This document shows positions 20,326-62,582 of a stretch of 64,000 nt of DNA, piece by piece. The position numbers were made by a program, and so were the translations under genes. Below the pieces are notes generated by a model. That model worked only from the letters and a program-made list of their open reading frames with translations. It was not told the origin of the DNA and did no database searches. Numbering within the stretch: position 1 is the first letter of the stretch; every line of letters starts with the position of its first letter. This DNA comes from Escherichia phage A5-4: sequence record OP744025, one strand, 5' to 3'.

Positions 20326-20328
20326 TTG

Positions 20329-20384: not shown

Positions 20385-20393
20385 GCTTATCAG

Positions 20394-20675: not shown

Positions 20676-20676
20676 T

Positions 20677-20733
20677 TTGACAATACGCAGTTATCTGGTA
20701 AAGTGTACTACATAGCGCGGAAATACTTCCCGC
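20677..20733 (+). promoter_or_regulatory. promoter + 5' stem-loop cassette
   Basis: TTGACA then imperfect hairpin GCGGAAATACTTCCCGC. Confidence 0.45.
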
Positions 20734-20752
20734 CATTAATGAGGATAATTTA

Positions 20753-20890
20753 ATGAAAACTTTCAACGCAACAGCCTCGACAATTGGTTATATTATTACA
20801 GTGCAAGCCGTAGATCTGGTAGCAGCAGCAAACAAGATTAAAAGAATGATCCCGCTAGGTAGTGAATTTTCCGTTTGGGAAGTAAAATAA
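20753..20890 (+). CDS. small hypothetical protein (45 aa)
   Basis: cassette 20677-20733 upstream; GAGGA RBS; not in track. Confidence 0.4.
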   Translation: MKTFNATASTIGYIITVQAVDLVAAANKIKRMIPLGSEFSVWEVK

Positions 20891-20893
20891 TTC

Positions 20894-20955
20894 TTGACAA
20901 TAGTTTGTTACTTGATAGAATGTATTTCGTAGGGCGGGGCAATGGAGCAACGCCC
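20894..20955 (+). promoter_or_regulatory. promoter + 5' stem-loop cassette
   Basis: TTGACA, 16 nt, TAGAAT, GTATTTCGTAGGGCGGGG...CGCCC. Confidence 0.55.
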
Positions 20956-20973
20956 ATTAATGAGGCTAGCATC

Positions 20974-21078
20974 ATGTTAGAGAAAATTTTCACGGTTGCA
21001 GTGGTTGGCCTGGCGTTATCGGTTGGAGTGGTTGCAACTATGGCTAATATGATCCTATCTTCCCACGGTATCGGTTAA
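20974..21078 (+). CDS. small membrane peptide (34 aa)
   Basis: track start 20875 inside promoter; ATG 20974 preferred. Confidence 0.35.
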   Translation: MLEKIFTVAVVGLALSVGVVATMANMILSSHGIG

Positions 21079-21090
21079 GAGAGACACATC

Positions 21091-21477
21091 ATGAAAACAG
21101 AAATCATTATTGAAATCATCAACGGTTACAAAGAGGCTTTTATCTTTGCTGAATCAGCCAGGAATCACGAAGGTGATTTTATAGATGACATGACTGATTA
21201 TGATTTTTCAGATCAAGCCCAGCAACGGATCATTCGTGACGTGGCGGCTTTTTGTGACGCCAATGATGCCGCTATCTCTGAGGCAATGAGCGACGGCGCA
21301 ACAGCCAACCAGATCGGGAATGATTTACATTTTACCCGTAACGGTCACAGCGTAGGCTTTTGGGATCGCCCTGAGATATACACTACTAACACGGCTAACC
21401 GTTTGACCAATGCCGCTAAATTTATGCCAAACGTGTCAGCCTACATTGGGAAAGATAATCTGATTTATATTGAATAA
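21091..21477 (+). CDS. hypothetical early protein
   Basis: 128 aa; AAGAGAGA RBS. Confidence 0.55.
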   Translation: MKTEIIIEIINGYKEAFIFAESARNHEGDFIDDMTDYDFSDQAQQRIIRDVAAFCDANDAAISEAMSDGATANQIGNDLHFTRNGHSVGFWDRPEIYTTNTANRLTNAAKFMPNVSAYIGKDNLIYIE

Positions 21478-21483
21478 AAAGTA

Positions 21484-21538
21484 TTGACAAGCTGAATCAA
21501 CCTGACAAGATGTATCACATAGGGGCGATAAACGCCCC
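21484..21538 (+). promoter_or_regulatory. promoter + 5' stem-loop cassette
   Basis: TTGACA ... CAAGAT GTATCACAT, hairpin GGGGCG-ATAAA-CGCCCC. Confidence 0.55.
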
Positions 21539-21558
21539 ATAACAGAAAGGGTAATCTT

Positions 21559-21753
21559 ATGACGTTAGCAACATGTACCGGATCAAAAATTGCTTGCTTT
21601 GAGTTTATGGAAGACTACCACACGACCGCAATCACTGACCAATATATTACAGTGATCACGCGTGACGGTATCGCCTGGCATGTTCCGGTTTATGATGGGG
21701 ATACCTATGAAGTCACCGACAGCGACGGCAATACAGCTATCTTTGTTGTCTAA
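21559..21753 (+). CDS. hypothetical small early protein
   Basis: cassette 21484-21538 upstream. Confidence 0.55.
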   Translation: MTLATCTGSKIACFEFMEDYHTTAITDQYITVITRDGIAWHVPVYDGDTYEVTDSDGNTAIFVV

Positions 21754-21765
21754 GGGGGAAACACT

Positions 21766-21993
21766 ATGCACAATAACATCATTACCGATCGTGCCGCCAC
21801 TATGCGCCCTGGCGATCGGGCACGTTTACAGGTTGGCGCTTATCCGTTCCCTACTTATGACTTTTGCAAGGTGACGGCAGTCGAAAACAATCCCTTTGAT
21901 CCTGATACCGTGATCATCTGGTACGAAGGAAGGGGAAATAAGTATGAAGATGTTTTATGGCGGGATGAGCATATCAACATTATTCGTTACTAA
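21766..21993 (+). CDS. hypothetical small early protein
   Basis: GGGGGAA RBS; ORF track. Confidence 0.55.
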   Translation: MHNNIITDRAATMRPGDRARLQVGAYPFPTYDFCKVTAVENNPFDPDTVIIWYEGRGNKYEDVLWRDEHINIIRY

Positions 21994-22111
21994 TCGCCAC
22001 CTAACAGCCTAAATAGTAGGAGGTAATGCAATCCCCTACTCAATGAGAATGGAGCGCCCTGGCTTATGCTGGGGCGTTTTATGTTGTATGGAAATAATTT
22101 AGAAAATAAGC

Positions 22112-22168
22112 TTGACGCCGGGAATGTTAGCGCGTATAGTTTATCACATAGGGCGGCAATAGTGCCGC
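22112..22168 (+). promoter_or_regulatory. promoter + 5' stem-loop cassette
   Basis: TTGACG, 17 nt, TATAGT, TTATCACAT, hairpin GCGGCA-ATAG-TGCCGC. Confidence 0.6.
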
Positions 22169-22188
22169 TCATAATTGGAGTAGAGATC

Positions 22189-22362
22189 ATGGCAATTCTG
22201 GCGAAAGATGTAAAAGTAGGTATGACCTTTAATGATTGTGAAGTTGTCTATGTTGCCGCGCACGGCGACGGTATCATTACCATTGAAACAGAACACTTTG
22301 ATCGAGATTGTGGCGAGATGGAATATTTTTCTTGCGAGTATCATGAAAACGATGAGTTTTAA
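22189..22362 (+). CDS. small acidic protein (57 aa)
   Basis: track start 22066 spans promoter; ATG 22189 after GGAG preferred. Confidence 0.45.
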   Translation: MAILAKDVKVGMTFNDCEVVYVAAHGDGIITIETEHFDRDCGEMEYFSCEYHENDEF

Positions 22363-22366
22363 ACTA

Positions 22367-22421
22367 TTGACACTGTAAGTAATTGTGTTAATATTTTTGT
22401 GTAGGGCGGCAATGTTGCCGC
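22367..22421 (+). promoter_or_regulatory. promoter + 5' stem-loop cassette
   Basis: TTGACA, 16 nt, TAATAT, hairpin GCGGCAA-TG-TTGCCGC. Confidence 0.6.
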
Positions 22422-22442
22422 TCACTGACTGGAGCTATCACC

Positions 22443-22844
22443 ATGACCTTTACAATCACCTCTTACACTGACGTTGCCAGCATTGCTAAAACTTTCGGCC
22501 CTGAAGCCCTTAAATATGCGGTATCCAATGGTAATCTGACAAAAGAGGAATGTTATCTGATTGGAAGCTGTAAACGTTGGGCGGTATCTCGTAACATCGA
22601 GATTGAAAACGTAAATGATGGCAACATCGAATATAGCGTTGATGCAGTATTCCAAGTTGTTGATTTAGGTGGTATCTATAATACCAATCTTAATGATGTG
22701 CGTATCGTTCGCACTGGCTTTGGGGCTTATGATGTTCCAGTTCGTGAAGCTATGGAAAAAGGTTATATTAATCCAGCCATTTTAAGCATGATCATGACTG
22801 AGGCCAAACAACGTAACGAGATACGGGCTATCCTGGGCCTGTAA
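22443..22844 (+). CDS. hypothetical early protein
   Basis: cassette 22367-22421 upstream; GGAG RBS. Confidence 0.6.
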   Translation: MTFTITSYTDVASIAKTFGPEALKYAVSNGNLTKEECYLIGSCKRWAVSRNIEIENVNDGNIEYSVDAVFQVVDLGGIYNTNLNDVRIVRTGFGAYDVPVREAMEKGYINPAILSMIMTEAKQRNEIRAILGL

Positions 22845-22865
22845 TGAAATATTAATGGAAAACTA

Positions 22866-22917
22866 TTGACACGGATCGTCAATATGCTAATATTTATCAC
22901 GTAGGGCGGCAACGCCC
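22866..22917 (+). promoter_or_regulatory. promoter + 5' stem-loop cassette
   Basis: TTGACA, 16 nt, TAATAT, TTATCACGTAGGGCGGCAACGCCC. Confidence 0.55.
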
Positions 22918-22943
22918 CAGATTAATAAAAATAGGAAATAAAT

Positions 22944-23150
22944 ATGACTACTTCAATGATCAGATCTTCCGACATTAAAAAGGCTTTATCTGCATTGCGT
23001 TATCATCATAGAATGAAAGTAATCAACGATGAGAGCTATCTAGATTCATCGTTAGAAAGCGATACGTTGGAAGCCATTTCAAAATTATCTGATTTGCATA
23101 AACGCATGACCGAAAGCAACCGATCCGACTTCATAGGGGGCGAAATATGA
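22944..23150 (+). CDS. hypothetical small early protein
   Basis: cassette 22866-22917 upstream. Confidence 0.55.
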   Translation: MTTSMIRSSDIKKALSALRYHHRMKVINDESYLDSSLESDTLEAISKLSDLHKRMTESNRSDFIGGEI

Positions 23151-23407
23151 GCATTGCAATGTTAATCAATACCGTAGAAGAGGCGAAAGCATTAAAGTTA
23201 CGTGTTGAACTGATTGATCAGCCAGGTGGAGATCTCCTTGTACAAATCTATCCCCCAAAGGATGATTCTGGCGCTTATGATTGGTGCTACTCTGACACGT
23301 TCGAACAAGTAGACATTAAAGCAATAACATCATTTATCAATAGGGCTATACTTGAGCAAACGATAGAACTTAACGGGATGTTAAAAACACCCTGGCACAT
23401 TTACTGA
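23147..23407 (+). CDS. hypothetical small early protein
   Basis: ATGA overlap; followed by terminator 23419-23444. Confidence 0.55.
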   Translation: MSIAMLINTVEEAKALKLRVELIDQPGGDLLVQIYPPKDDSGAYDWCYSDTFEQVDIKAITSFINRAILEQTIELNGMLKTPWHIY

Positions 23408-23418
23408 GTTCGACAAAA

Positions 23419-23444
23419 GGGCTTGACTTGTTCAGCCCTTTTTT
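23419..23444 (+). terminator. rho-independent terminator
   Basis: GGGCTTGACTTGTTCAGCCC followed by TTTTTT. Confidence 0.7.
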
Positions 23445-23584
23445 GCTATTCTTATCAAACGGGCGGCACCTGGGAACAGGGGGGAGGTAATCACTGGACG
23501 ACTCCGCTATATAGTGATAGTAAATAGCTATCAATAATCTCCAAAAATAAAATAAAACCTATCGAGTCTTTACAATTCTTTCTA

Positions 23585-23613
23585 TTGACACAACAACCGC
23601 ATTACAGTATTAT
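23585..23613 (+). promoter_or_regulatory. strong sigma70-like promoter with no ORF downstream
   Basis: TTGACA, 17 nt, TATTAT, then ATCTCGTAGGGCAGCG start region; no ORF of 60 aa or more for about 350 nt. Confidence 0.55.
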
Positions 23614-23886
23614 TTATCTCGTAGGGCAGCGAAGCAGTGATGTAAAGTAGTTACTCTATGATGTAAGTTCTGAGAAGTCGAATCCGATAAAGTATCAGAA
23701 AGTTTCTAAGTTTTCGAATCGTCCAGATGAAAAAGGCTGGCAAGTGTTGAGAAAGGGCACGTTGAGTAAGTCCTGAACAGGGGCGCTCCTAGACACCTTC
23801 TACTGAGATTGCGATCGAAGTGTTAAACTGTGAGAAACGATAAAGAGTACCAGGAAAGAAAGAAGTAAAAGAAGTGAAAAAGATTG
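23614..23886 (+). ncRNA. candidate non-coding transcript (promoter-driven, ORF-free)
   Basis: lies between terminator 23419-23444/promoter 23585 and next promoter 23887; only stop-rich frames; no structure or homology evidence. Confidence 0.25.
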
Positions 23887-23916
23887 TTGACACGAAGGTA
23901 AGTTTTGTACTATTAT
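23887..23916 (+). promoter_or_regulatory. sigma70-like early promoter
   Basis: TTGACA, 18 nt, TATTAT, ATCTTGTAGGGCA. Confidence 0.5.
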
Positions 23917-23960
23917 CTATCTTGTAGGGCAAACTTCAAGAACATTAAAAAGGGTACAAA

Positions 23961-24236
23961 ATGTTACAGCTTAACGCCAAATTAGACAAAGAAATCACTG
24001 AGTTTTGGGATATGGTAGTGGCTACAGATGTTGACGGTGTAGCAAGTCCTTACCTCAATAACATTGAGTATCATAATGTTGCAGCTATGAATGCAGAATA
24101 CGCAGAAGAAGGCGGCGCGGATAAGTTTGCTAAAAGCAACGGTTTCACTGATGCTAACGACATGATGCAATCAGTTTTGTGGCAAGCCCAGGAAGATTTT
24201 GAAGAAAAAACTCTTGAATTCGCCAGACGTTCATAA
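23961..24236 (+). CDS. hypothetical small early protein
   Basis: promoter 23887-23916 upstream. Confidence 0.55.
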   Translation: MLQLNAKLDKEITEFWDMVVATDVDGVASPYLNNIEYHNVAAMNAEYAEEGGADKFAKSNGFTDANDMMQSVLWQAQEDFEEKTLEFARRS

Positions 24237-24291
24237 TAGAATAATCAAACGGGCCGAAAGGCCCACTAATTGACCTAACAGGATTAACATC

Positions 24292-24561
24292 ATGAATCGC
24301 ATCGACCAGCTTAAAGTAGTTCAGCATATGGCTTACCGTATCCTTGAAGTTCAGAAAGGGAGCAAAAAAGAAGTATGTGAGAAGGCTTATAAGGTATTCA
24401 GCCACAAAGCTGATGATTGGAAGTTGCAGAAAGTAAAAAAGGCCGATATCCTGGGATACCTTGAAGAAGAGATCCGCATTGCAGACCAAAAACAGATTCG
24501 TCGTGATGAAGCAGAACATAACCAGGCCTGGCAAGAATGGTTTAAAGGCTACACTAAGTAA
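24292..24561 (+). CDS. hypothetical small early protein
   Basis: ORF track; hairpin 24251-24264 upstream. Confidence 0.5.
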   Translation: MNRIDQLKVVQHMAYRILEVQKGSKKEVCEKAYKVFSHKADDWKLQKVKKADILGYLEEEIRIADQKQIRRDEAEHNQAWQEWFKGYTK

Positions 24562-24624
24562 AATTGAAAACGGGGGGCCATATGGTCCCTTTGTAAATAT
24601 TCCATTAATTTACAATTCTCCCTA

Positions 24625-24654
24625 TTGACAAGAAAGTCAATTTTGCAGTATAGT
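24625..24654 (+). promoter_or_regulatory. sigma70-like early promoter
   Basis: TTGACA, 18 nt, TATAGT. Confidence 0.5.
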
Positions 24655-24694
24655 TATATCTCTAGCAGCAAACAACAAAACAAAGGACAACGAC

Positions 24695-25114
24695 ATGAAC
24701 ATCAAATCAACTAATCCGGCTTACTCTTTCGATAACGCTTTTTGTCACGGTAGCGCCGCCAAAGGTTTTGAAATTGATGGTAAACTGGTTATCGTCAATG
24801 TTGATGGGGAAGAGGTTGCAGTTTATCCAGTGGCAGACGTTAAAAGCCGTTTACAATGTCGCATGGACGTTAATGAATACCGCCTTGATCCGGTTCGTGT
24901 CGTTGCCCTGGTCCTGGAAGAAGAAATTAAAGCAATGCAGCACGGTAATAAGTTTATTGGTGATGCACAGGACAACATGAAAGTAAGCCGCCACAAAGTT
25001 AATGAAGCACTGAAAGATTTTGGCTTTAAAGACCTGATTATCAAACGTGATGAAAAATTCCGCTTTCGTAATGATCTGGCAAATCGCTACTATGAAATCT
25101 ATGAAGCACTTTAA
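24695..25114 (+). CDS. hypothetical early protein
   Basis: 139 aa; promoter 24625-24654; followed by terminator. Confidence 0.6.
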   Translation: MNIKSTNPAYSFDNAFCHGSAAKGFEIDGKLVIVNVDGEEVAVYPVADVKSRLQCRMDVNEYRLDPVRVVALVLEEEIKAMQHGNKFIGDAQDNMKVSRHKVNEALKDFGFKDLIIKRDEKFRFRNDLANRYYEIYEAL

Positions 25115-44741: not shown

Positions 44742-45978
44742 TCTCCTTCAACTTGTCAAGGTATTGTGTAACGTATCTTACTTTTACATTTCGGATTCTG
44801 CTCTTGATCTCATTTGGACGTCCCGCGAATTTTTCAGAAATCTCTTTACTTTCTTTTGAGATTGCAACACTGTTCTGGATAATCCCTGCCAGTGCTGAGA
44901 ATAATACCAAAGGCTGAGTGTAACTGTCAAACATTTTTTCAGGACCACGACCACGAGAATCACAGATGCAAGCATCAATGAATTCAGAAAGGAATGCTTG
45001 GTCCTTTTCACCACGTAAGGCTACTAACAAGTCATAAACTTTCTTCGGCTTCATTTCTTTGATACGGTGGAGTCGCGTATGATGCTCAGTCACAGCTAAA
45101 GCCAACTTCTTCCAACTATTGGGGACACCAAAGCGATCACAAACTTGTTCAGTTAACTTGATACCGTGCTCTTCGTGACCGTGCAGTTTACCCGTTACCC
45201 AGTAAATACATTTACCTAAGTCGTGACACAGAACTGCCCACTTCACAGCTTCACTTGCACGAGTCGCCTGGGCATAATCCATGCAAAGTAAAGTGTGAAC
45301 AAATGCATCACCTTCAGGATGGTGCTCCTTGGGTTGAACAACATCGTATAAATCCACAAGCTCAGGAAATTCTCCCAGTTGAGTCAACATACGGATCATT
45401 ACCGAAGGTTTATTCATTTCTGACTGATCACTAAAGCATTTCTTAATCTCTGCAAATTTACGCTCTTTTGGAAGTGCACTTAAGTCTACATTTTGGCACA
45501 TTCCCCAAGTGTCATGATCAATTGTAAACTCACCGCCGTATCGGGCGTGTAGTCTGGCTAATCGGTATACACGTAAAGGGTCTTCGATAAATGCTTTAGT
45601 GGATACACAACGTAACCGACTATTTTCAATATCAAGTACACCACCACAAGGGTCAATAATTTCACCCGTGGAAAGATCCTTGGCAATAGCATTAATGGTC
45701 AAATCTCTTCGCATCAGATCTTGTTCGATTGTAACGTCTGGAGAGAACACAACCTCGAAGTCGTGATAACCAGGGCCTGTTGATCTTTCTGTCCGAGCAA
45801 GAGCGTACTCTTCTTTGGTGTCTGGTTCAAGGTACACAGGGAAAGCTGCACCAACCTTAGTGAATCCTTTTTCAATCATCTCTTCGTGGGTCGCACCAAC
45901 AACCACGTAGTCTCGATCCTTACTTTCAACGCCCATTAGTTCATCACGAACTGCTCCACCTACCAAGTAAACTTTCAT
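44728..45978 (-). CDS. cca: tRNA nucleotidyltransferase (CCA-adding enzyme) with C-terminal HD domain
   Basis: MKVYLVGGAVRDELMG N-terminal head motif, later HDLGK; start moved to ATG 45978 with AAGAGGAGAAAG RBS. Confidence 0.8.
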   Translation of the reverse strand: MKVYLVGGAVRDELMGVESKDRDYVVVGATHEEMIEKGFTKVGAAFPVYLEPDTKEEYALARTERSTGPGYHDFEVVFSPDVTIEQDLMRRDLTINAIAKDLSTGEIIDPCGGVLDIENSRLRCVSTKAFIEDPLRVYRLARLHARYGGEFTIDHDTWGMCQNVDLSALPKERKFAEIKKCFSDQSEMNKPSVMIRMLTQLGEFPELVDLYDVVQPKEHHPEGDAFVHTLLCMDYAQATRASEAVKWAVLCHDLGKCIYWVTGKLHGHEEHGIKLTEQVCDRFGVPNSWKKLALAVTEHHTRLHRIKEMKPKKVYDLLVALRGEKDQAFLSEFIDACICDSRGRGPEKMFDSYTQPLVLFSALAGIIQNSVAISKESKEISEKFAGRPNEIKSRIRNVKVRYVTQYLDKLKESENG

Positions 45979-46238
45979 ACTCTTTCTCCTCTTAAGTTTA
46001 AAGACCAATCTTTTATTTCTTCTTTCCAGTTTGTATTTCTCTCAATGTCTTGCTTTTGACCACGAAGATAGTTGATGATCTCAAGCGGGTCTTGCTTAAC
46101 AAAAGAAATATTATCGATCGGACACTCAACTAACTTAAGCATCCTTTCAAAACGATTATACTCATCTTCTGACTTTGATGCAACAGGAATAACATCGTAA
46201 TCTTCAAGATTATTGAGAGTTTCAAGAGTGACCTTCAT
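45975..46238 (-). CDS. hypothetical protein
   Basis: start moved to ATG 46238 (GAAGG RBS); ATGA overlap with cca. Confidence 0.45.
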   Translation of the reverse strand: MKVTLETLNNLEDYDVIPVASKSEDEYNRFERMLKLVECPIDNISFVKQDPLEIINYLRGQKQDIERNTNWKEEIKDWSLNLRGERV

Positions 46239-46357
46239 CTCGTAACCTTCTAATTTCTTTGTCTTGATACCAAACACTCTTCGAAAGTAAATGTAATATT
46301 TCATTATGTTCTCCTAGTTGATGACTATCATTATACACATCTATGAATTCAAGTCAA

Positions 46358-46393
46358 TAAAAAAAAAAAAAAAAAGGCCACCCGAAGGTGACC
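46358..46393 (-). terminator. strong rho-independent terminator after methyltransferase gene
   Basis: minus strand hairpin GGTCACCTTCGGGTGGCC followed by T18. Confidence 0.75.
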
Positions 46394-46400
46394 TTTAAAT

Positions 46401-46910
46401 TTAAGGGTGAATCCAGTAAAAAGGTTTTGTTAAACCAAGTTTACCTTTTTTATCCCAAATAAAATAACCATATGCTGCACCATCTGTTTTACCATCGTCA
46501 GTAAAAGAAGGTCGCTTAGATAAAGTAACTAAGTGATCAACAGGGTATTGCTTCCAGAACTCAACACGTTTGGTACTCTCAAGGAAACCTAAACGAAGAA
46601 GCATGATCACTACATCAGCATCCTTGTGCGCTTTTTCTACAAACTCTTGAGCTAAATTGTAAGGTGGATTAGTTAACACACAATCTACCTTATTGTATTT
46701 AGTTGCAAGATAATCAACACCTTCTTGAATCTCTCCCCAGGCTGAACCAATTGGCATTTCATTATAAAAACTTCCAGAGGCTCTGCAAGGTTCCAGATAA
46801 GTCCAATCCTGACGGATTGGAACTAAATTCAAGAAAGCATCTACTGCCCATTTCGGAGTTTCATAGCGATCATTTTCACGGCGCTCTGCTTTAGGTTTCA
46901 ATGCTGCCAC
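46401..46910 (-). CDS. phage-type DNA N6-adenine methyltransferase
   Basis: EPCRASGSF (motif I-like) and TNPPY (motif IV); 169 aa. Confidence 0.7.
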   Translation of the reverse strand: MAALKPKAERRENDRYETPKWAVDAFLNLVPIRQDWTYLEPCRASGSFYNEMPIGSAWGEIQEGVDYLATKYNKVDCVLTNPPYNLAQEFVEKAHKDADVVIMLLRLGFLESTKRVEFWKQYPVDHLVTLSKRPSFTDDGKTDGAAYGYFIWDKKGKLGLTKPFYWIHP

Positions 46911-55380: not shown

Positions 55381-55408
55381 ATTATACGGATTACCTTACC
55401 GAAGTCAA
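55381..55408 (-). promoter_or_regulatory. sigma70-like promoter inside nrdA-nrdB insert
   Basis: minus strand TTGACT, 16 nt, TATAAT, then AGGAGG RBS and ATG at 55351. Confidence 0.55.
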
Positions 55409-55413: not shown

Positions 55414-55433
55414 AACCGCCCCGAAGGGCGGTT
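55414..55433 (-). terminator. terminator hairpin AACCGCCCCGAAGGGCGGTT (copy 1)
   Basis: perfect 8-bp stem, CGAA loop, T-run on minus strand; identical copies at 55639 and 61459. Confidence 0.65.
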
Positions 55434-55437
55434 AATT

Positions 55438-55626
55438 TTAATTGTACTTGTTGAGAATGTTAAACATATCTTTTGCAATATATTTATTGTCTCGACAACC
55501 AGCAAGGTTGTTACGAAGTGCAGCCATATAGATCTCTGTGCCGCAACCTGGGTAGGATGTGCCGAATCTTTTTGCCTGTCGTTTAAATGTCCAACGATCA
55601 ATAAAGAACCACGAGATAAATTTCAT
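55438..55626 (-). CDS. hypothetical small protein (inserted between nrdA and nrdB)
   Basis: 62 aa; flanked by identical hairpins AACCGCCCCGAAGGGCGGTT; GAGGAGG RBS. Confidence 0.5.
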   Translation of the reverse strand: MKFISWFFIDRWTFKRQAKRFGTSYPGCGTEIYMAALRNNLAGCRDNKYIAKDMFNILNKYN

Positions 55627-55638
55627 ATTCCTCCTCAG

Positions 55639-55658
55639 AACCGCCCCGAAGGGCGGTT
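55639..55658 (-). promoter_or_regulatory. hairpin AACCGCCCCGAAGGGCGGTT (copy 2) in 5' leader of small ORF
   Basis: identical hairpin directly upstream of GAGGAGG RBS; no T-run on minus strand. Confidence 0.5.
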
Positions 55659-55666
55659 ATTTATTG

Positions 55667-57925
55667 TCACAGTTTACAAGCACCTGATTCGCAGCCTTCA
55701 TCCTCTTCATCTTCACCATCACGAGTTTCTTGATAGTAAACAGTCTTCAGGCCAATCTTGTAAGCATACATCAGGTCACGCAGTACAATCTTAATCGGCA
55801 GTTTGCCACCTGGATAATCCCAAGGTTTGTAGAAGGTATTGGTCGAGATCGACTGGTCAATAAACTTCTGGATGATAGCCATCAGGTTAAGATAAGCTGT
55901 CGGTCCGTTCATATCCCATTTGTACTCGTATACCACACCTTCCTCACCAACACCAGGAACCAGCGTCGGAAGCATACCCGCAGGTGACTTCTTAAACGTC
56001 ACTGGACCACGAGGAGGTTCAATGCCGTTGGTAGAGTTAGTGATCTGGCTCGATGTTTCACAAGGCATCATTGTGGACAACGTTGAGTTACGTAATCCGT
56101 GCAATGCGATATCCAGACGCAAACTTTCCCAATCTTGTTGCAATTCTGCGGTATGCAACTGATCAACTTCTTTCTTGTAGCGATCGATAGGTAAGATGCC
56201 ACGAGAATAAGATGTTTGATCGTACCACTCACAAGCACCACGCTCTTTCGCCAACTGAACAGAAGCTTTCAGCAGGTAGAACTGGAATGCTTCCGCGAGT
56301 TTATGAACTTCATTGGCAGCTTCCGGCGAACTATATTTAAGTCCACGTTTAGCCAAGTAATACGCCAAGTTAGTCCAGCCAATACCTAAAGTACGACGCA
56401 GTAACGTTTTCTCTGCTGCAAGAACAGGGTAGTTCTGATAATCAAGCAGGTTATCAAGAGCACGTACCGTGATCATAACAGGTTCTTCTAAATCTTCAAG
56501 CTTCTCGATCTTTCCGAGGTTGATTGCTGATAAAGTACACAGTGCAACTTCACCAGAATCTTTCGGGTCCTTAATGTTATTGATCGGAGCCGTAGGTAAT
56601 GCAATTTCCATACACAGGTTAGACTGCTTAATCGGAGCCACTTCAGGAAGGAACGGACTGTTGCTATTGCAATGGTCAACGTTCTGAATATAAATACGAC
56701 CCGTCTGGCTACGTTCTTGAGCTAAACGAGTGAAAGCATCAGTCGCTTCAAGCTCTTTGCGAGGAATGGAAGGATCTGCTTCCAATTTCTCATACAGTTC
56801 TGCAAATGCTTCTTGATCCGAGAAGAAGTATTTATACAGATCACCGTTTGCTACGTTTGGATGGAAGAAACTGATCTTGCCACCTTTCTGTAAGCGAGTA
56901 TAGAAGAACTTGTTGATCTGAACACCATAATCAACATGTCGTGCACGGGTGCTTTCAGTACCACGGTTGTTCTTCATTACGATCAGGTTTTCAAAGTCCC
57001 AGTGCCAAATCGGGTAGAAGTAGTTAGCTGAAGCTTTACGCAGACCACCTTGAGATGCCCAACCTAAAGATTCTTGATACATTCGAACAATGCCAACCGT
57101 ACCTGCATGTTTAACTTCCCCGCCGCGAATAGGAGCGTCCTGTCCACGAATAGCACCAAAGTTCAAACCGATACCTGCTCGCTGTGCTGCATACTTACCT
57201 TGTGCTTCAACTGCTGCAAAGATCTGGTTAATATCATCACCGGACTCAATCAGTACACAAGAACTGAATTGTCGAGTCGGGGTTCGTACCCCACCCATAA
57301 TCGGAGTAGGCAGAGAAACCTTCATGGTAGAAACCATATTGTACAGATCAATCACTTTTTGTAAACGCTTCTTAGGATCTTCTTTACTCATCAAACACAT
57401 TGCGATCAGCATCAGTGCTGTCTGAGGGGATTCAAAGATTTCACCTGTTACACGATCCTTGACCAAATACTTATCTTCATACTGACGCATAGCTGCGTAA
57501 GTGTAATCAAAATCACGGTCATGATCGATAACTGTATCTAAGAATTCAATCTCTTCCTTCGTATAATCTGAAATCAGATGTTCATCGTATTTACCGCGAG
57601 CCACAGTCATAAGAATGTGAGCATACAGTGGACGAGGTTCAAAACCACCATAAGCCTGCTTACGCAGTTTAAACAGAAGCAGACGTGCTGCTGGATACTG
57701 ATAGTTTGGACTTTCTACACTAATTAGGTCCGCTGCGGACTTGATCAGGGTATCGTGGATCGCGTCTGTTTCTACACCATCATACATCTGAATCTGAGAT
57801 TTCATCAGGATATCAGAAGGACTTACATCATTAACCCCTTCACAAGACCAAACTACAACACGGTTTATTTTCTCAGCTTCGAATTTCTCTACAGAACCAT
57901 TACGCTTACGAACAGTAATACCCAA
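55667..57925 (-). CDS. nrdA: ribonucleotide reductase class Ia alpha subunit
   Basis: 752 aa; N-terminal ATP-cone-like region, C-terminal CESGACKL tail; strong resemblance to E. coli NrdA. Confidence 0.9.
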   Translation of the reverse strand: MGITVRKRNGSVEKFEAEKINRVVVWSCEGVNDVSPSDILMKSQIQMYDGVETDAIHDTLIKSAADLISVESPNYQYPAARLLLFKLRKQAYGGFEPRPLYAHILMTVARGKYDEHLISDYTKEEIEFLDTVIDHDRDFDYTYAAMRQYEDKYLVKDRVTGEIFESPQTALMLIAMCLMSKEDPKKRLQKVIDLYNMVSTMKVSLPTPIMGGVRTPTRQFSSCVLIESGDDINQIFAAVEAQGKYAAQRAGIGLNFGAIRGQDAPIRGGEVKHAGTVGIVRMYQESLGWASQGGLRKASANYFYPIWHWDFENLIVMKNNRGTESTRARHVDYGVQINKFFYTRLQKGGKISFFHPNVANGDLYKYFFSDQEAFAELYEKLEADPSIPRKELEATDAFTRLAQERSQTGRIYIQNVDHCNSNSPFLPEVAPIKQSNLCMEIALPTAPINNIKDPKDSGEVALCTLSAINLGKIEKLEDLEEPVMITVRALDNLLDYQNYPVLAAEKTLLRRTLGIGWTNLAYYLAKRGLKYSSPEAANEVHKLAEAFQFYLLKASVQLAKERGACEWYDQTSYSRGILPIDRYKKEVDQLHTAELQQDWESLRLDIALHGLRNSTLSTMMPCETSSQITNSTNGIEPPRGPVTFKKSPAGMLPTLVPGVGEEGVVYEYKWDMNGPTAYLNLMAIIQKFIDQSISTNTFYKPWDYPGGKLPIKIVLRDLMYAYKIGLKTVYYQETRDGEDEEDEGCESGACKL

Positions 57926-57936
57926 TTTATTTCTCC

Positions 57937-58185
57937 TTATTTAGTTTCAGTTTTAGTTGCAGACTTGTTGATCAGGGTATCATATTTATCGACATTTTCA
58001 AGTGTCGGTTCACCTAATCGAACAGTTAATCCAGAATATTGATCGTGGTAAGTGTCGTCATAACCAAACGAGTCATCAACCAGATCATTAAACTGCAACC
58101 AACCTAAGTATTCATGCTTACTTGCAAAACCACGCTGGAACCATTTAGTTTGTTCAACCGGAACTGTTAATTTAGATTTACCCAT
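57937..58185 (-). CDS. hypothetical protein
   Basis: ORF track. Confidence 0.5.
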   Translation of the reverse strand: MGKSKLTVPVEQTKWFQRGFASKHEYLGWLQFNDLVDDSFGYDDTYHDQYSGLTVRLGEPTLENVDKYDTLINKSATKTETK

Positions 58186-58199
58186 AATATCTCTCCTTA

Positions 58200-58673
58200 T
58201 TATTTAATCAGTGTTTCAGAAAACTCAGGAAGATCCATAACGATTGTTTCGGAACGATCTTCTTTTCGTGTGTACTTACGGGTATTCACCTTTTCAACAA
58301 CCGGAATATCAAAATCTAAAGAGTTAACAAAAGCTGTTGCTTTTGAACTTCTAACATCCAGAATGTCCATCTTTTCATAGATATCTACCAGCGGGAATTC
58401 TGATTTGTCACGTAGACGTCCAGAAAACACTGTTGTTTCACGGCAAAGGTACGGCTTGTCGATACAACGCACATTCACTCGGTTAATTCGGTCAATCTGG
58501 CAAGGTTTATATTCACCAGTCTCTTCATTCAGAATTGAAACTTGGAAACCGATCAGGTGAAGGACTTTACGAAGAGTTTTGTCATCCTTCGGGTCGAAGT
58601 TCATGATTTTTGCACATTCCAAAATGAAATCCAGAGTTACTGCACCGTATTTAACTTCTTTCTTAAAACCCAT
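58200..58673 (-). CDS. hypothetical protein
   Basis: start moved to ATG 58673 with GAGGAG RBS. Confidence 0.5.
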   Translation of the reverse strand: MGFKKEVKYGAVTLDFILECAKIMNFDPKDDKTLRKVLHLIGFQVSILNEETGEYKPCQIDRINRVNVRCIDKPYLCRETTVFSGRLRDKSEFPLVDIYEKMDILDVRSSKATAFVNSLDFDIPVVEKVNTRKYTRKEDRSETIVMDLPEFSETLIK

Positions 58674-58760
58674 TTTAATCTCCTCGTACAACATTTTAAA
58701 AGTGGGGCAACATGCCCCAGCGCCGATAATGATATAAAATTAACTAACCAATGTCAATAA

Positions 58761-59783
58761 TTATTTTGCAACATGTCCAGGAATTAACTGACGATGTTGA
58801 ACAAACCCTTTCAGGTTACCACTCCAGAAGTTACCGTCGCGATCTACGTGAGTAATGCCTTCTTCCCAAGATTCTGGACACCACGGCACGTTCACCATGC
58901 TCTGCCCTTCTTCAACATCCTCACACGTTTCCTGGATCTCCTTCGCCTGATGCTCGAATGGAGAAGCGTGAACCTTTTTACCCGATACAAGCTTGGCATA
59001 AATATCCAGAGCCTTATCTTTCGTATTGTTAAGACGACGATAACTTACCTGCCCACAACAAGAGGAAGAGATAGACAAAGCTTCTTCTTCAGACAGCATA
59101 ATATGATTACCATCTTCATCCTGTACACAATACCCTGCGAAAATATGTCCATCGCCCAAAGGTCCAGAGTCGAAGCAATGATCTACGTAAGGAGTATGCC
59201 ACACCCCAGGCTGTAACCATTCTGGAGTAGAAGCTTTATAAGCTTCGTGCATTTTCTTAGCCAATACTTCGATCGTTGGATCTGCATCTGCATCAACACG
59301 TAGCCAGAAGAAGTTTTCAAATTCCGTTGCTGTAACGATAGTCTTCATCATCTGGAACGGTTCGATCAATCGGTTAGCAATCTGCTTATGGAACCCTGCC
59401 GTCTCGAAACGTTCTGCCCATTCACAGGCATTTTCCGCAGCCTTGGCCCAAGCTTCTCGTCCGGTACAGTACAGTTCATGACACACGCCACTTGTATCTT
59501 CCACCCAATCATACCATACTTTACCATCATGTTCTGTTCCTTTATCCTGCATACCAGGTTGGTTAGCACCAAATCGAACAGGCATTGCCATATTTTCACG
59601 GATCAGTTTAACCATTGTCTTGATCGGCACTGCACGAGAAGACATTGCATTTCGGCTAAACAGTCGGTGCGTCATAAGTTCTGAGTGAATGAATCGAGGA
59701 TAGGTCAATTCAAACGTGGTGATACGAGCTTTACTACGATAGCCAACAGAATCTGCAATAATACGGGCTTCAATCATGGACAT
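58761..59783 (-). CDS. thyX: ThyX-family (flavin-dependent thymidylate synthase-like) protein, atypical
   Basis: THRLFSRNAMSSR matches ThyX signature RHR-x7-S except first Arg is Thr; FFW motif; 340 aa, longer than canonical ThyX. Confidence 0.55.
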   Translation of the reverse strand: MSMIEARIIADSVGYRSKARITTFELTYPRFIHSELMTHRLFSRNAMSSRAVPIKTMVKLIRENMAMPVRFGANQPGMQDKGTEHDGKVWYDWVEDTSGVCHELYCTGREAWAKAAENACEWAERFETAGFHKQIANRLIEPFQMMKTIVTATEFENFFWLRVDADADPTIEVLAKKMHEAYKASTPEWLQPGVWHTPYVDHCFDSGPLGDGHIFAGYCVQDEDGNHIMLSEEEALSISSSCCGQVSYRRLNNTKDKALDIYAKLVSGKKVHASPFEHQAKEIQETCEDVEEGQSMVNVPWCPESWEEGITHVDRDGNFWSGNLKGFVQHRQLIPGHVAK

Positions 59784-59799
59784 TCAAATCTCCTCTCTA

Positions 59800-60006
59800 T
59801 TAATTTAAATCTTCAACAAATTGTGGCAAGTAATCTTCAATTGGGCTACTCAAATCATTTTCTCTTACAATTTCCAAGTTAGCAAGTCTTTTCTTTGCCA
59901 AGTAAGAAATAAATTCCTTAGTATCTACCCTGTGTCCTTCTAGTGCCAACTTACCGTCAATATAAACACCTTCCCAATCTTCACCTTCGAAAAATACTAT
60001 TTTCAT
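59800..60006 (-). CDS. hypothetical protein
   Basis: ORF track. Confidence 0.5.
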   Translation of the reverse strand: MKIVFFEGEDWEGVYIDGKLALEGHRVDTKEFISYLAKKRLANLEIVRENDLSSPIEDYLPQFVEDLN

Positions 60007-60188
60007 TTTATTTTCCTGATTTTGTAATCAACACGAACATCATACATAACGTGAAGATACATGTCAAACATTTCTTTGCACATATCGCTTTTTACTTTGA
60101 AGGAAGCCAAAAGGCTTCCATTTTCTTTAGAAAGGATCTCTACATAATCCCCTTCCCTAACTACCCACCTTCCTTTACCACATCTCAA
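60003..60188 (-). CDS. hypothetical protein
   Basis: ORF track; 4-nt overlaps both sides. Confidence 0.5.
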   Translation of the reverse strand: MRCGKGRWVVREGDYVEILSKENGSLLASFKVKSDMCKEMFDMYLHVMYDVRVDYKIRKIK

Positions 60189-60790
60189 GATTCTCTCTCC
60201 AAAATAAATTCAGCAATCGATGCCCAATCGCTAGTTACCAAGTCGTAACATCCGATCTCTTCTTCATCTTGACTGAAGGGTGTATCATACTTGATTTTTA
60301 CTACCTTGTCACTAAATTGATTCAAAAATTTATTACGATCATCAATGATGTAATCACCCGAAACTCCAGCCTTGTACTTTGTAGCATAAAAACCACACCC
60401 GTCTGTTCCATTTTCAAGGTCCAGGTTAGGGAAGTGTCGCTTCAAGAAACGAACCTTACTGCTAAAATGACCTTTCTTGCAATAAGAAACAAACCGAATA
60501 GGGAATCCTGCGGCATGTAACTTGTTGATTGCATCTACCGCTCCCGCAATAGGGAACATCTTATCATACAAGAAAGGATCTTCCCAATAATCATACGGAG
60601 GGATAGCCTTCTTACAGCGATCAGGGAAGTACCGAGAAAGATTGTAATCAAAATACCCATTCTCGCTAATGTCCTTTTCCATAAGGTCAGAATCAGCCTC
60701 CATATTATAGATGCTTTCCATCCAGTGCAACCAAGGCCATCCAGAATCAACGATAGTTAAGTCAACATCCACAATGATCGCTTTTTTCAT
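60185..60790 (-). CDS. HAD-superfamily phosphatase (5'-nucleotidase-like)
   Basis: N-terminal DVDLT (DxDxT) motif; adjacent to dNMP kinase. Confidence 0.6.
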   Translation of the reverse strand: MKKAIIVDVDLTIVDSGWPWLHWMESIYNMEADSDLMEKDISENGYFDYNLSRYFPDRCKKAIPPYDYWEDPFLYDKMFPIAGAVDAINKLHAAGFPIRFVSYCKKGHFSSKVRFLKRHFPNLDLENGTDGCGFYATKYKAGVSGDYIIDDRNKFLNQFSDKVVKIKYDTPFSQDEEEIGCYDLVTSDWASIAEFILERES

Positions 60791-61429
60791 TTACTCTTTC
60801 CCCTCTGAGAGTTTGATAATTAATTTTGCAGTTTCAGTTAGCTTACCATTAACGTTTTCAACGTCGAAATCTCTAGGTCGTGCACTTTCAGGGAAATTCT
60901 CAGAGTAAATATAATTACGAGAATCACCTTCAAAAGTTAATTTATTACCTGTTCGTGGATCAGTACGATGTAAACGGATCAGGGTGTAATCACCATTTAC
61001 CGCTTTAACTACCGGAACACTTTCATGAATAAATCCACCATCAGAGCTAATAAATGTACAAGTATAACCATCCATTTCCATACTTTTCGCAATATCTTTA
61101 ACACGCTTGGCAAGAGCAACACCGAAGTATTCTTCCCCGAAGAGAGGCTTCGCAACATTCTCCGAGATGTGGATCAGCCAGTTACGTGGGGACACTTGTT
61201 TACCTGCAACATTAAAATATGGTTGAGGTACTTCTTTATAATCACGGTGGTAAAGTGCATCCCACAGTTCACGATTAATACCTGCAATACGAATAGCTAG
61301 ATCGATAAGGGAACCTTTAAACTCCACATGAATACCCACGTTGTTGCCTACGGTAACTAACTGAGCGATCTCACCAGCAAGAGCATCTTTACCAGAAAAA
61401 GCAGGACCATTCAAATTGATAAATTTCAT
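60791..61429 (-). CDS. deoxynucleoside monophosphate kinase-like P-loop kinase
   Basis: NGPAFSGKD P-loop at N-terminus; 212 aa. Confidence 0.6.
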   Translation of the reverse strand: MKFINLNGPAFSGKDALAGEIAQLVTVGNNVGIHVEFKGSLIDLAIRIAGINRELWDALYHRDYKEVPQPYFNVAGKQVSPRNWLIHISENVAKPLFGEEYFGVALAKRVKDIAKSMEMDGYTCTFISSDGGFIHESVPVVKAVNGDYTLIRLHRTDPRTGNKLTFEGDSRNYIYSENFPESARPRDFDVENVNGKLTETAKLIIKLSEGKE

Positions 61430-61458
61430 ATTAATCTCCTCTCAGTTTCACAATAAAA

Positions 61459-61478
61459 AACCGCCCCGAAGGGCGGTT
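61459..61478 (-). terminator. terminator hairpin AACCGCCCCGAAGGGCGGTT (copy 3)
   Basis: followed by T6 on minus strand, 30 nt upstream of dNMP kinase start. Confidence 0.65.
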
Positions 61479-61487: not shown

Positions 61488-62582
61488 TTACAGAATGTTT
61501 GCCAGCGTTTTCTTCATCGCTGCCTTCTCGCGAACATTCTGACGATCTCGTGCACAAGAACCACATTCTTGACAACGATAAATCTTGAACTTAGACAAGA
61601 ACGTTACTGCTGACTTACCTTCCTCAATAACCAAGTCGTCACTACCACAACGAACACAACGCATTGCCGTCTGATCTTTGTGGAACAATGCAATGTTCGG
61701 ATGTTTACGCATGAAAGGTCGTACAGTCAGATACAGTTCTTCCAGCGTTGGAATATCACCAATGTTATATTCTTCCATCTCTTCAAATGCGGTTGGGTCA
61801 CCTTCAACACAACGTCGCCACAGACTGAAACCTTCGTGCGACAGCTTACGACTATCAAGTTCAAAATAGTTACATGCTGCTTCAAGTGCATTTGAAGGAA
61901 GAGAGAAAGCTTCTTTCAGTGCAGCCAATGTATCGATCGTAATGTAAGGACTTGGTGGTTGCATACCGTAATATGCGAAACGCTGATTTGCCCAACCACG
62001 GTCAAAGCGAGCATTATGTGCGATGAAGATATCACATTCATCCAGAACTTTCCACAGGTCTTCGATCAACTTACGATCTGACTGGTGATCTCGTGCAAAC
62101 TCTTCTGGATAATCCGTCAGCTTACGGCTGAAGATCGACGGGTTGTGCAACCACTTACCAGCAAATGTCAGCATGTACGGTTCCATAATTACCTGCTTCG
62201 GTGCAATGAACTGTTTAAATCGTCCAAACGAATATGCAACAGAAGGAGATGTTTCAACGTCACCAAGGAAAACTTTAGCACCTGGGTTCTGCTCTTTGAT
62301 CTTTTCAATGAAATCTTTTTGAATCTTAGCAACAGGTTCACCACCCGACTCTTTCTGCTGCATATATTCTGCATAGTTTTCGTAATCTTCATACGCCGGA
62401 GTGATTTCAAGGAGTTCTTTAACGCTTGAAACATCATTCTTTTCAATTTCACGACGGATCATATTACGAACCGTGGATTCCTGAGACTCTTTACCCAATT
62501 GGCGAGCTACTTCGCGCTGAGACAGACCGTGTTTCATCAGTTGCAGAACTTGTTCAACAGTAAAAGTTACTTTATTAGTCAC
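61488..62582 (-). CDS. DEDD-type 3'-5' exonuclease (RNase H-like fold) with N-terminal HTH
   Basis: GDVETS (Exo I-like) and FIAHNARFD (Exo II-like); N-terminal LSQREVARQLG helix-turn-helix. Confidence 0.6.
   Translation of the reverse strand: MTNKVTFTVEQVLQLMKHGLSQREVARQLGKESQESTVRNMIRREIEKNDVSSVKELLEITPAYEDYENYAEYMQQKESGGEPVAKIQKDFIEKIKEQNPGAKVFLGDVETSPSVAYSFGRFKQFIAPKQVIMEPYMLTFAGKWLHNPSIFSRKLTDYPEEFARDHQSDRKLIEDLWKVLDECDIFIAHNARFDRGWANQRFAYYGMQPPSPYITIDTLAALKEAFSLPSNALEAACNYFELDSRKLSHEGFSLWRRCVEGDPTAFEEMEEYNIGDIPTLEELYLTVRPFMRKHPNIALFHKDQTAMRCVRCGSDDLVIEEGKSAVTFLSKFKIYRCQECGSCARDRQNVREKAAMKKTLANIL

Follow-up and report, generated by a model that had tools for sequence, protein, structure and literature searches.

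An identical 20-nt hairpin that occurs three times in one phage genome could be a sequence that has spread by recombination, as the initial annotation proposed, or a signal that has been kept separately at each of its sites. We asked which of these applies in a 64,000-nucleotide stretch of Escherichia phage A5-4 (the window), a Vequintavirinae coliphage that is about 98% identical to W70 and A73. The 20-mer AACCGCCCCGAAGGGCGGTT is present exactly three times in the window, at 55414-55433 (copy 1), 55639-55658 (copy 2) and 61459-61478 (copy 3), just as first noted, and a wider search also recovered it from viral contigs and from relatives. Within the window there are no further matches at up to three mismatches, and 100 dinucleotide-preserving shuffles gave no matches at all. 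We conclude that the repeat is not a mobile element but a transcription-stop signal, ordinary and ancient in this family of E. coli phages. The best explanation as a whole, to which we give a probability of roughly 80%, is that minus-strand transcripts of early and middle (DNA-metabolism) genes form terminator hairpins, which have been kept by common descent and structural selection. The sole unusual point is that two of the stop signals have poly-T tails (12 and 17 T) that are found in no sequenced relative.

Hairpins at the ends of minus-strand genes

The genes of this region are on the minus strand, and all five hairpin sites (the three copies, plus two related hairpins that we refer to as the T12 and T17 sites) are co-oriented with them. 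Read on the minus strand, the 20-mer is AACCGCCC-UUCG-GGGCGGUU, a C(UUCG)G tetraloop hairpin, and by sequence reading all five sites have, on the RNA strand, a UUCG loop closed by a C-G pair. The hairpins lie 4-9 nt past the stop codons of the exonuclease, nrdA, ORF62, methyltransferase and RCC1-like genes, all on the minus strand, and fold into 8-10 bp stems of -12.2 to -14.6 kcal/mol. In a terminator scan, these sites were the top-ranked terminator-like sites on the minus (gene) strand.

The hairpins had been described as terminators, and for four of the five sites the sequence agrees. U-tracts are present at copies 1 and 3 and at the T12 and T17 sites (6-8 U among the first 8 nt, in a U6-A-UUG pattern, with tail scores of 3.9-6.9), so these four fit intrinsic terminators, and we predict that they act as Rho-independent terminators or attenuators; copy 2 lacks such a tract (tail score 0.55 versus 3.9), and for it the description does not hold. 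What the sites share with intrinsic terminators of E. coli and of E. coli phages is the G/C-rich stem-loop, the immediate U-tract, the position past a stop codon and the orientation with the gene. Besides copy 2, the differences are that copy 3 is inside an operon without a downstream promoter and that the T12 and T17 tracts are unusually long. The phage presumably depends on the host RNA polymerase, like the related phage CB7. For CB7, reliance on the host enzyme has been reported (PMC7344957). A search of the whole window against Rfam at gathering thresholds matched zero families, and ARAGORN found zero tRNAs in it.

Copy 3 (61459..61478, minus strand) lies 9 nt past the stop of the exonuclease gene (61488-62582, minus strand), folds at -14.6 kcal/mol, and is followed by the U-rich tail UUUUAUUG (61451..61458, minus strand; tail score 3.95). 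The hairpin is unchanged in 5/5 close relatives, and the Pectobacterium phage P7_Pc has an orthologous CCGCCC-UUCG-GGGCGG hairpin that is annotated as a terminator. Our scan found no promoter-like site between 61430 and 61560, and the next ORF is at 60791-61429, so the downstream genes need read-through and copy 3 cannot be a full stop; it is a putative attenuator inside the operon, one that must leak.

Copy 1 (55414..55433, minus strand) lies 4 nt past the ORF62 stop and has the tail UUUUAUUGAC (score 3.89). Its U-tract abuts a sigma-70-type promoter, TTGACT-16 nt-TATAAT (55381..55408, minus strand; 11/12 consensus positions), which is predicted to drive a 113-codon ORF and nrdB. This promoter has a homologue in Certrevirus phages, the TTGACA...TCCGTATAAT promoter that precedes nrdB, and the hairpin, U-tract and promoter together align with CR9, CR3, phiTE and SSBI34. 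Copy 1 is the terminator half of a putative terminator-promoter module, and two of the five hairpin sites, copy 1 and T17, have this arrangement, a compact one in which the U-tract is followed directly by the -35 box of a putative strong sigma-70 promoter.

At the T17 site, the hairpin AAAGGUCACC-UUCG-GGUGGCCUUU (46373..46396, minus strand; AAAGGTCACC-TTCG-GGTGGCCTTT as minus-strand DNA) is just past the stop codon that ends the DNA adenine methyltransferase gene (46401-46910, minus strand). It has one U.G pair, which on the other strand is a C-A mismatch, so full pairing occurs on the gene strand only (sense fold -14.6 versus antisense -9.2 kcal/mol). The same hairpin is at the orthologous site of CR3-like phages and at a second site in W70. 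The T17 tract (46359..46375, A17 on the plus strand) is the terminator U-tract on the minus strand and is T6 in every relative. After it comes a TTGACT-16 nt-TATAAT promoter (46330..46357, minus strand; 11/12 match), relative to which the tract is at about -37 to -53, the position of an UP element. The promoter, predicted to drive a 109-codon ORF (45975-46304), is kept in relatives, and CR3-like phages share GTGTATAAT.

The T12 hairpin, AAACCGCC-UUCG-GGCGGUUU (30176..30195, minus strand; AAACCGCC-TTCG-GGCGGTTT as minus-strand DNA), is the 20-mer stem minus one C-G pair, folds at -12.2 kcal/mol, and closes a cluster of RCC1/WD40-like genes. It is kept in five relatives, with a UUUG loop in LTH01. 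Its U-tract, T12 (30167..30178, minus strand; A12 on the plus strand), is T6 in the five relatives.

Copy 2 and the nrdA-nrdB junction

Copy 2 (55639..55658, minus strand) lies 8 nt past the nrdA stop, and its tail, CUGAGGAGGAAUAUG, has a single U in 8 nt and runs directly into the ribosome-binding site of ORF62. Without a U-tract, copy 2 does not qualify as a canonical terminator. Probably it remains between nrdA and ORF62 as an RNA 3'-end or processing barrier, a structural hairpin that could mark or protect the nrdA 3' end and insulate the ORF62 ribosome-binding site. ORF62 has 62 codons (55438-55626, minus strand) and, with its Shine-Dalgarno sequence GAGGAGG (55630-55636, minus strand), makes up a unit at 55438..55636 that is flanked on each side by the identical 20-mer.

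In W70, A73, LTH01 and UPEC06, copy 2 has two stem differences, a compensatory double change from G-C to A-U and a change from A-U to G.U, and in the loop C is replaced by U. Both stem changes keep the pairing, this compensatory evidence amounting to one or two substitution events. As a separate matter, we considered whether gene conversion had made copy 2 match copy 1 in the window and in A7_1, and rejected it since outgroups show that this state, CCGCCC/UUCG, is ancestral; conversion is not needed in the lineage of the window.

A tblastn search of ORF62 against 50,697 phage genomes (E<=1e-3) found five close relatives only. There is a distant homologue in phiTE, phiTE_153 (BLASTP E=1e-7), and an unannotated one in CR3, both located by sequence reading. 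In CR3-like phages nrdA is followed directly by the ORF62 homologue, and in CR3 and L034 the hairpin is absent at the position of copy 2. Across the subfamily we observed four architectures of the nrdA-nrdB junction, each with a hairpin (HP) at a boundary: nrdA-HP-P-nrdB in CR9, L029 and SSBI34, where ORF62 is absent; nrdA-ORF62h-HP-P in CR3 and L034; nrdA-HP'-ORFs-ORF62h-HP-P in phiTE; and nrdA-HP-ORF62-HP-P in this clade. Judging from these architectures, copy 2 is an extra, clade-specific copy bordering ORF62 at a junction that varies within the subfamily. It probably arose as an additional copy in the ancestor of the clade, at a place where small ORFs come and go beside the hairpin. The junction is a small comparative case of small-ORF gain and loss beside regulatory hairpins outside the T4-like phages.

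Distribution and origin of the copies

All of the sites are orthologous in W70, A73, A7_1, LTH01 and UPEC06. The nrdA/ORF62-end and exonuclease-end hairpins are also found in other genera, at about 70-75% identity, and orthologous hairpins carry terminator annotation in the phiTE, P7_Pc and rV5 records. Orthology across genera indicates that copies 1 and 3 are old. Among viral contigs, 89 stretches contain the exact 20-mer, with mostly unrelated flanks; some of these stretches are from the same contig, and several are related Vequintavirinae. Two arbitrary control 20-mers of the same design occur in 63 and >120 stretches. Copies 1 and 3 share a 28-mer, and this is found exactly in 40 bacterial species. 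Because the 20-mer is widespread and control hairpins occur at similar frequency, there is no support for recent spread. In the case of copies 1 and 3, recent spread by recombination is likewise left without support by the orthology, the unrelated flanks and the equally common controls.

A broader version of that proposal is that a terminator cassette has spread, or been converted, within the genome, with crossover or insertion of small-gene cassettes taking place at the hairpins. Several observations are in its favor. ORF62 is exactly bounded by two identical 20-mers, and in all four junction architectures the hairpin is at the boundary. In W70, stems of the CCGCC(C) type or the CCACCC variant occur at 7 sites that have the stem-loop alone in common, and an imperfect hairpin, GGUCACC/GGUGGCC, is found at 2 sites together with its wobble pair. 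There is also a precedent in the promoter-early stem-loops (PeSLs) of T4-type phages (PMC2839356, PMC4122927). Nevertheless, we consider it unlikely. The copies share 20-28 nt, versus about 100 bp in PeSLs, with identity ending at the hairpin plus TTTTATTG, and their flanks are unrelated. Copies 1 and 3 are conserved across genera, the sites mutate independently in relatives with no homogenisation seen, and mostly unrelated phages, as well as bacteria, also contain the 20-mer and the 28-mer. Furthermore, in the one large indel that we examined, the 6.6-kb difference from W70 at 18354-24993, the junction is a short repeat at paralogous ORF ends and not a hairpin.

The reading that we prefer, terminator hairpins retained by descent and structure, would explain the identical copies chiefly by common descent at orthologous sites, together with strong selection, very few designs being optimal and this being one of them: an all-G/C stem with an A/U extension, capped by a C(UUCG)G tetraloop of extra stability. 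Apart from copy 2, there would be no need for recent copying; some copying, with copy 2 as the extra copy, is plausible. Conservation of the same stem across sites and genera is not fully explained by structural selection alone, and gene conversion or a sequence-specific factor could contribute to it.

That same conservation, without compensatory drift at several sites across genera, would also be expected if the palindrome acted as DNA, for example as a protein-binding site, a cruciform, or a replication or packaging signal. We regard this as highly improbable. In 82 of 90 tabulated occurrences of the 20-mer (the 89 viral stretches and the W70 locus), there is at least one T directly past the stem on the UUCG strand, and a T-rich tail is on that strand in nearly all of them. 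The hairpins always have the orientation of the genes and are always just past stop codons, the U.G pair of the T17 hairpin is valid in gene-strand RNA only, and the compensatory changes in copy 2 keep the pairing and not the sequence.

Comparison with hairpins of T4 and T4-type phages

The exceptionally stable C(UUCG)G hairpin was originally discovered in phage T4 mRNA (PMC4371310). The hairpins described here resemble those of T4 in having a C-G-closed UUCG loop and in lying between the cistrons of a large virulent coliphage, and in the 40 kb of T4 that we scanned, UUCG hairpins with U-rich tails are present. They differ in that the phage family and the stems are not the same, and in that the relatives here tolerate UUUG and UUCU loops.

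In T4-type phages, modules are shuffled by way of PeSLs (PMC2839356, PMC4122927). Like PeSLs, copy 1 and the T17 site combine a stem-loop terminator, a strong sigma-70 promoter and an AT-rich upstream stretch, and the small, clade-restricted ORF between two hairpin copies, where relatives have one, is a further likeness. Unlike PeSLs, the composite is found in 2/5 UUCG-loop sites and not at copies 2 and 3, and the shared repeat falls short of the roughly 100 bp conserved in PeSLs. These are also phages of a different subfamily, Vequintavirinae, and the likeness here is one of sequence. PeSLs flank ORFans that differ in presence between related phages; the possible counterpart here is a single locus, ORF62, and the breakpoints there do not require hairpin-hairpin exchange.

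Overall the repeat matters little, and the worth of this analysis is in closing the lead on it. It does help to define transcription units in a poorly annotated group of phages that is present in phage-therapy collections.

Length of the T tracts

The initial annotation gave the two long tails as T12 and T18. The first is correct (A12, 30167-30178), while the second was miscounted and is A17 (46359-46375). No other A/T run in the 64-kb window is longer than 6, while 67 runs are of exactly that length. Both are private to this genome, since the tracts are T6 in W70, A73, A7_1, LTH01, UPEC06 and CR3-like phages. An exact-protein look-up of the methyltransferase in public assemblies led to LTH01 and two Logan contigs, which are T6 and both end right after T6-A. 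For the RCC1-like protein the look-up gave A73 alone, and for ORF62 and the 109-codon ORF there was no match.

These tracts had also been proposed as sites prone to slippage or recombination. This is borne out as far as lengths differ between genomes (T12 and T17 versus T6, and at copy 3 T8 in LTH01 versus T6 elsewhere), and not beyond that. Most likely, T12 and T17 arose from T6 tracts of the ancestor by slippage expansions of +6 and +11, which non-coding sequence would tolerate. A serious though less favored possibility is that they are sequencing or assembly artefacts, and that the true genome has T6. This would fit their being the sole runs of such length in 64 kb, in a lineage otherwise nearly without runs of at least 7, and the T6 found in five relatives, in CR3-like phages and in two independent Logan assemblies. 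On the other side, among the approximately 10 indels relative to W70 across 29-64 kb, 0 are +/-1 changes in other A/T runs of five or six, which argues against general homopolymer miscalling; copies 1 and 3, whose hairpins are equally strong, read T6; and the T8 of LTH01 at copy 3, an independent case, indicates that terminator tracts do vary. Both homopolymers should be checked in reads before the sequence is trusted or engineered.

A more speculative idea, which we think improbable, has two parts taken jointly: in Vequintavirinae the 20-bp UUCG terminator hairpin, in the role of the 100-bp PeSL, may be a landing or exchange point for small-gene cassettes such as ORF62, and the poly-T tails may sit at a stability threshold, with a non-coding tract longer than 6 expanding quickly (T8, T12, T17). 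If the threshold is real, the terminator tails would be the hypervariable sites of the genome.

Separately, a ceiling of 6 on A/T runs holds in the scanned stretches of W70, Certrevirus-like loci and rV5. We considered this as a peculiarity of the Vequintavirinae, which is weakened by T4, where the numbers drop nearly alike, with 44 A/T runs of 6, 2 of 7 and 1 of 8 in 40 kb.

Hairpin sites and predicted terminators

In the Escherichia phage A5-4 genome, conserved hairpins with a C(UUCG)G loop are predicted to act as intrinsic terminators, and some of them are fused to promoters. This is ordinary biology, and existing records of the Vequintavirinae subfamily already label orthologous hairpins as terminators. 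The window comes from a Vequintavirinae E. coli phage whose nearest records are W70 and A73 (~98.5% identity across 55-62 kb), followed by UPEC06, LTH01 and A7_1, and its genes from ~29 kb to 64 kb, on the minus strand, include nrdA, nrdB, thymidylate synthase, an exonuclease, an adenine methyltransferase and a CCA-adding enzyme. The initial annotation described three identical 20-nt hairpins and two long homopolymers, and as a whole the observation was accurate. Searching the whole window, we found AACCGCCCCGAAGGGCGGTT exactly at 55414-55433 (copy 1), 55639-55658 (copy 2) and 61459-61478 (copy 3), with no other copy at up to three mismatches, and it was absent from 100 of 100 dinucleotide-preserving shuffles.

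On the minus strand, where all the hairpin sites are read, the 20-mer is AACCGCCC-UUCG-GGGCGGUU. Copy 3 has the exonuclease stop 9 nt before it and is followed by UUUUAUUG; the next ORF starts 29 nt past that tail with no promoter between copy 3 and the ORF, and because the downstream genes have no preceding promoter, copy 3 must permit read-through. Copy 2 has the nrdA stop 8 nt before it and is followed by CUGAGGAGGAAUAUG, where ORF62 (62 codons, 55438-55626) has its ribosome-binding site and start; the ORF62 stop lies 4 nt before copy 1. Copy 1 is followed by UUUUAUUGACU, which includes the -35 box (TTGACT) of a TTGACT-16-TATAAT promoter. Two related hairpins complete the set: the T12 site (30176-30195), 3' of the RCC1/WD40-like gene cluster, with the 20-mer stem less one C-G pair and then T12, and the T17 site (46373-46396), just past the methyltransferase stop, with a different stem that includes one U.G pair, then T17 and a TTGACT-16-TATAAT promoter.

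Predicted RNA folds for the sites range from -12.2 to -14.6 kcal/mol; the T17 hairpin on the opposite strand reaches only -9.2 kcal/mol because the U.G pair turns into a C-A mismatch there. The U-tail score is 3.9-6.9 at four sites versus 0.55 at copy 2. Judged by folds, U-tails and positions, copies 1 and 3 and the T12 and T17 sites fit predicted intrinsic terminators, so the proposed terminator role holds for these four and fails for copy 2, a hairpin that lacks a terminator tail. Two of the four (copy 1 and the T17 site) are putative terminator-promoter modules.

Occurrence of the 20-mer elsewhere

The 20-mer is present in 89 stretches of IMG/VR contigs, some from the same contig and several from related Vequintavirinae, with mostly unrelated flanks. 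At least one T directly follows the stem on the UUCG strand in 82 of the 90 occurrences tabulated (the 89 viral stretches and the W70 locus), and the remainder are mostly still T-rich. Two arbitrary control 20-mers built on this design (AA, five G/C pairs, C(UUCG)G, UU) occur in 63 and >120 stretches, and the 28-mer common to copies 1 and 3 (the 20-mer plus TTTTATTG) is found exactly in 40 bacterial species, mainly Pseudomonas. By these counts the 20-mer is not special; optimal designs are few, so identical hairpins can arise or persist without transfer. Hairpins of the C(UUCG)G type are exceptionally stable and were originally recognised in T4 mRNA (PMC4371310). In the 40 kb of T4 that we scanned they likewise occur with U-rich tails.

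Conservation of the hairpins

All five sites are found at orthologous positions in all five close relatives (W70, A73, A7_1, LTH01 and UPEC06), and each varies independently. The copy 1 loop is UUUG in W70 and A73 and UUCU in LTH01. Copy 2 is CCACCC-UUUG-GGGUGG in W70, A73, LTH01 and UPEC06, a pair-keeping double change from G-C to A-U, with an additional A-U to G.U change in W70 and A73 only, while copy 3 is unchanged apart from a T8 tract in LTH01. Within just these five relatives, four of the five sites (orthologues of 55414, 55639, 30176 and 46373) show a loop change from UUCG to UUUG, possibly by deamination of the unpaired loop C; the change persists even though it weakens the special tetraloop.

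In other genera, AAAGCCGCCCUUCGGGGCGGUUUUCUUUUU lies 3' of the exonuclease gene of Pectobacterium phage P7_Pc, where it is annotated as a terminator, and CR9 has the exact 20-mer 3' of nrdA, followed by a U-rich tail, TTGACA-17-TATAAT and nrdB; SSBI34 is similar. A module of hairpin, U-tract, TATTGAC, TCCGTATAAT and CCACA can be aligned from the window clade to CR9, CR3 and phiTE. Since distant genera share the same core, the hairpins at the nrdA/ORF62 and exonuclease ends are old. The CCGCCC/UUCG state of the window is ancestral, so the identity of its copies 1 and 2 can be explained without gene conversion. The suggestion that the 20-mer spread by recombination is thus unsupported as far as recent spread is concerned, the hairpins being old and orthologous and the 20-mer and its same-design controls common in viral contigs. 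In W70 (133 of 137 kb scanned), a CCGCC(C)-type stem or its CCACCC variant occurs at seven sites and an imperfect GGUCACC/GGUGGCC hairpin at two, and this stem reuse exceeds what is expected from random choice among G/C stems.

The nrdA-nrdB junction

Four architectures occur at this junction within the subfamily (HP, hairpin; P, promoter): nrdA-HP-P-nrdB in CR9, SSBI34 and locus L029; nrdA-ORF62 homologue-HP-P-nrdB in CR3 and locus L034, where the nrdA end has no hairpin; nrdA-HP'-two ORFs-ORF62 homologue-HP-P-nrdB in phiTE; and nrdA-HP-ORF62-HP-P-ORF113-nrdB in the window clade, ORF113 being a 113-codon ORF. This makes copy 2 an additional hairpin specific to the window clade, possibly from an old duplication. 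The ORF62 homologue in phiTE is phiTE_153 (BLASTP E=1e-7). In CR3 (JQ691612.1; locus L313, 1330-1506) a small ORF that carries no annotation, MTVLWWFIYRRWRMISW..., lies between nrdA and the terminator; it is a homologue of phiTE_153 and of ORF62, and the family is probably under-annotated across Certrevirus.

One boundary of the variable segment is always occupied by a hairpin. In the promoter-early stem-loop (PeSL) cassettes of T4-type phages, ORFans lie between two stem-loop/promoter cassettes where a relative has a single cassette (PMC2839356, PMC4122927). The window clade, with ORF62 between two hairpins, partly resembles this, but the repeat common to the window copies is 20-28 nt versus ~100 bp in PeSL, and the pattern is confined to one locus. 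A PeSL-like role of the hairpin at this one variable junction is possible. At the one large indel relative to W70 that we examined (18354-24993), there was no hairpin at the ends, and the joins fall at a short repeat in paralogous ORF ends. This 6.6-kb block of small early ORFs is missing from W70, where a short repeat (AAGTTAA..AAGC / ACTGAAAGATTTTGGC) marks the in-frame fusion of the two flanking ORFs, indicating deletion or insertion between paralogous gene ends.

Long T tracts

Both reported homopolymers are present in the sequence, the second having been miscounted (A17, not 18); the plus strand reads A12 over 30167-30178 and A17 over 46359-46375. No other A/T run in the window exceeds six. 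At both sites the tract is T6 in five of five close relatives; at the T17 site it is also T6 in CR3-like phages and in two Logan assemblies with an identical methyltransferase gene, and unrelated contigs with this hairpin have tails of T4-T8, mainly T6. T12 and T17 are thus private to the window genome and are the sole unusual feature of the hairpin sites. Together with T8 in LTH01 they make three expansions, all at terminator tails, where a length change causes no frameshift.

Only ~10 indels separate the window from W70 between 29 and 64 kb, two being the +6 and +11 tract expansions, and none is a +/-1 indel in the other A/T runs of five or six, which argues against general homopolymer miscalling; a local assembly error at T12 and T17 is still a realistic alternative. 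The idea that the homopolymers are slippage sites is borne out only in that their length differs between genomes; for the expansions themselves we lean towards real slippage, and would otherwise regard them as artefacts. Relative to the next promoter, the T17 tract spans ~-37 to -53, the position of an UP element, and it might affect promoter strength. The two Logan contigs (SRR13235684, L309; SRR29026051, L310), from independent short-read assemblies, both stop exactly after GGTGGCCTTTTTTA, the terminator tail of the T17 site, which suggests an assembly-graph branch caused by another copy of the hairpin in the genome or by strain variation just downstream.

The whole window has 67 A/T runs of six and none of 7-11. 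Runs of six, seven and at least eight number 104, 2 and 0 in W70 (133 kb; L314, L105, L106), 41, 0 and 0 in Certrevirus-like loci (128 kb), 21, 1 and 0 in rV5 (50 kb; L355) and 44, 2 and 1 in T4 (40 kb; L356), and composition-matched unrelated viral loci have a 6-to-7 ratio of 0.34. The window lineage is strongly depleted in long A/T runs, with a sharp cut-off in length. The nearly equal drop in T4 argues against a ceiling peculiar to Vequintavirinae. Terminator U-tracts are subject to the same limit. In bacteria, homopolymer avoidance usually begins only at ~nine bases (PMC1088944).

Other repeats in the window

Tandem RCC1/WD40-like repeat protein paralogues (380 and 414 codons) occupy 30211-32607, with more upstream, and in LTH01 (L098) one further paralogue of 1.15 kb is inserted immediately ahead of the T12-site terminator. 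On the plus strand, one module is repeated ~14 times between 12300 and 22450, with hairpins at 12329, 13330, 14010, 14325, 14541, 15485, 15912, 17605, 18065, 18377, 20368, 21522, 22153 and 22406. Each consists of an A-rich stretch, (G)TTGAC(A), ~17 nt, a TAnAAT-like -10 box, ~8 nt (often CACATCAG), a G/C hairpin of 6-9 bp, and an A-rich spacer with a Shine-Dalgarno sequence leading to the ATG of a small ORF. The promoters resemble the Certrevirus consensus AAAA(N3)TGTTGAC...TATAAT (PMC7344957). The PeSL class with the stem-loop downstream of the -10 box looks closer to these modules than to the UUCG terminator hairpins, and the module hairpin would form the extreme 5' end of each early transcript.
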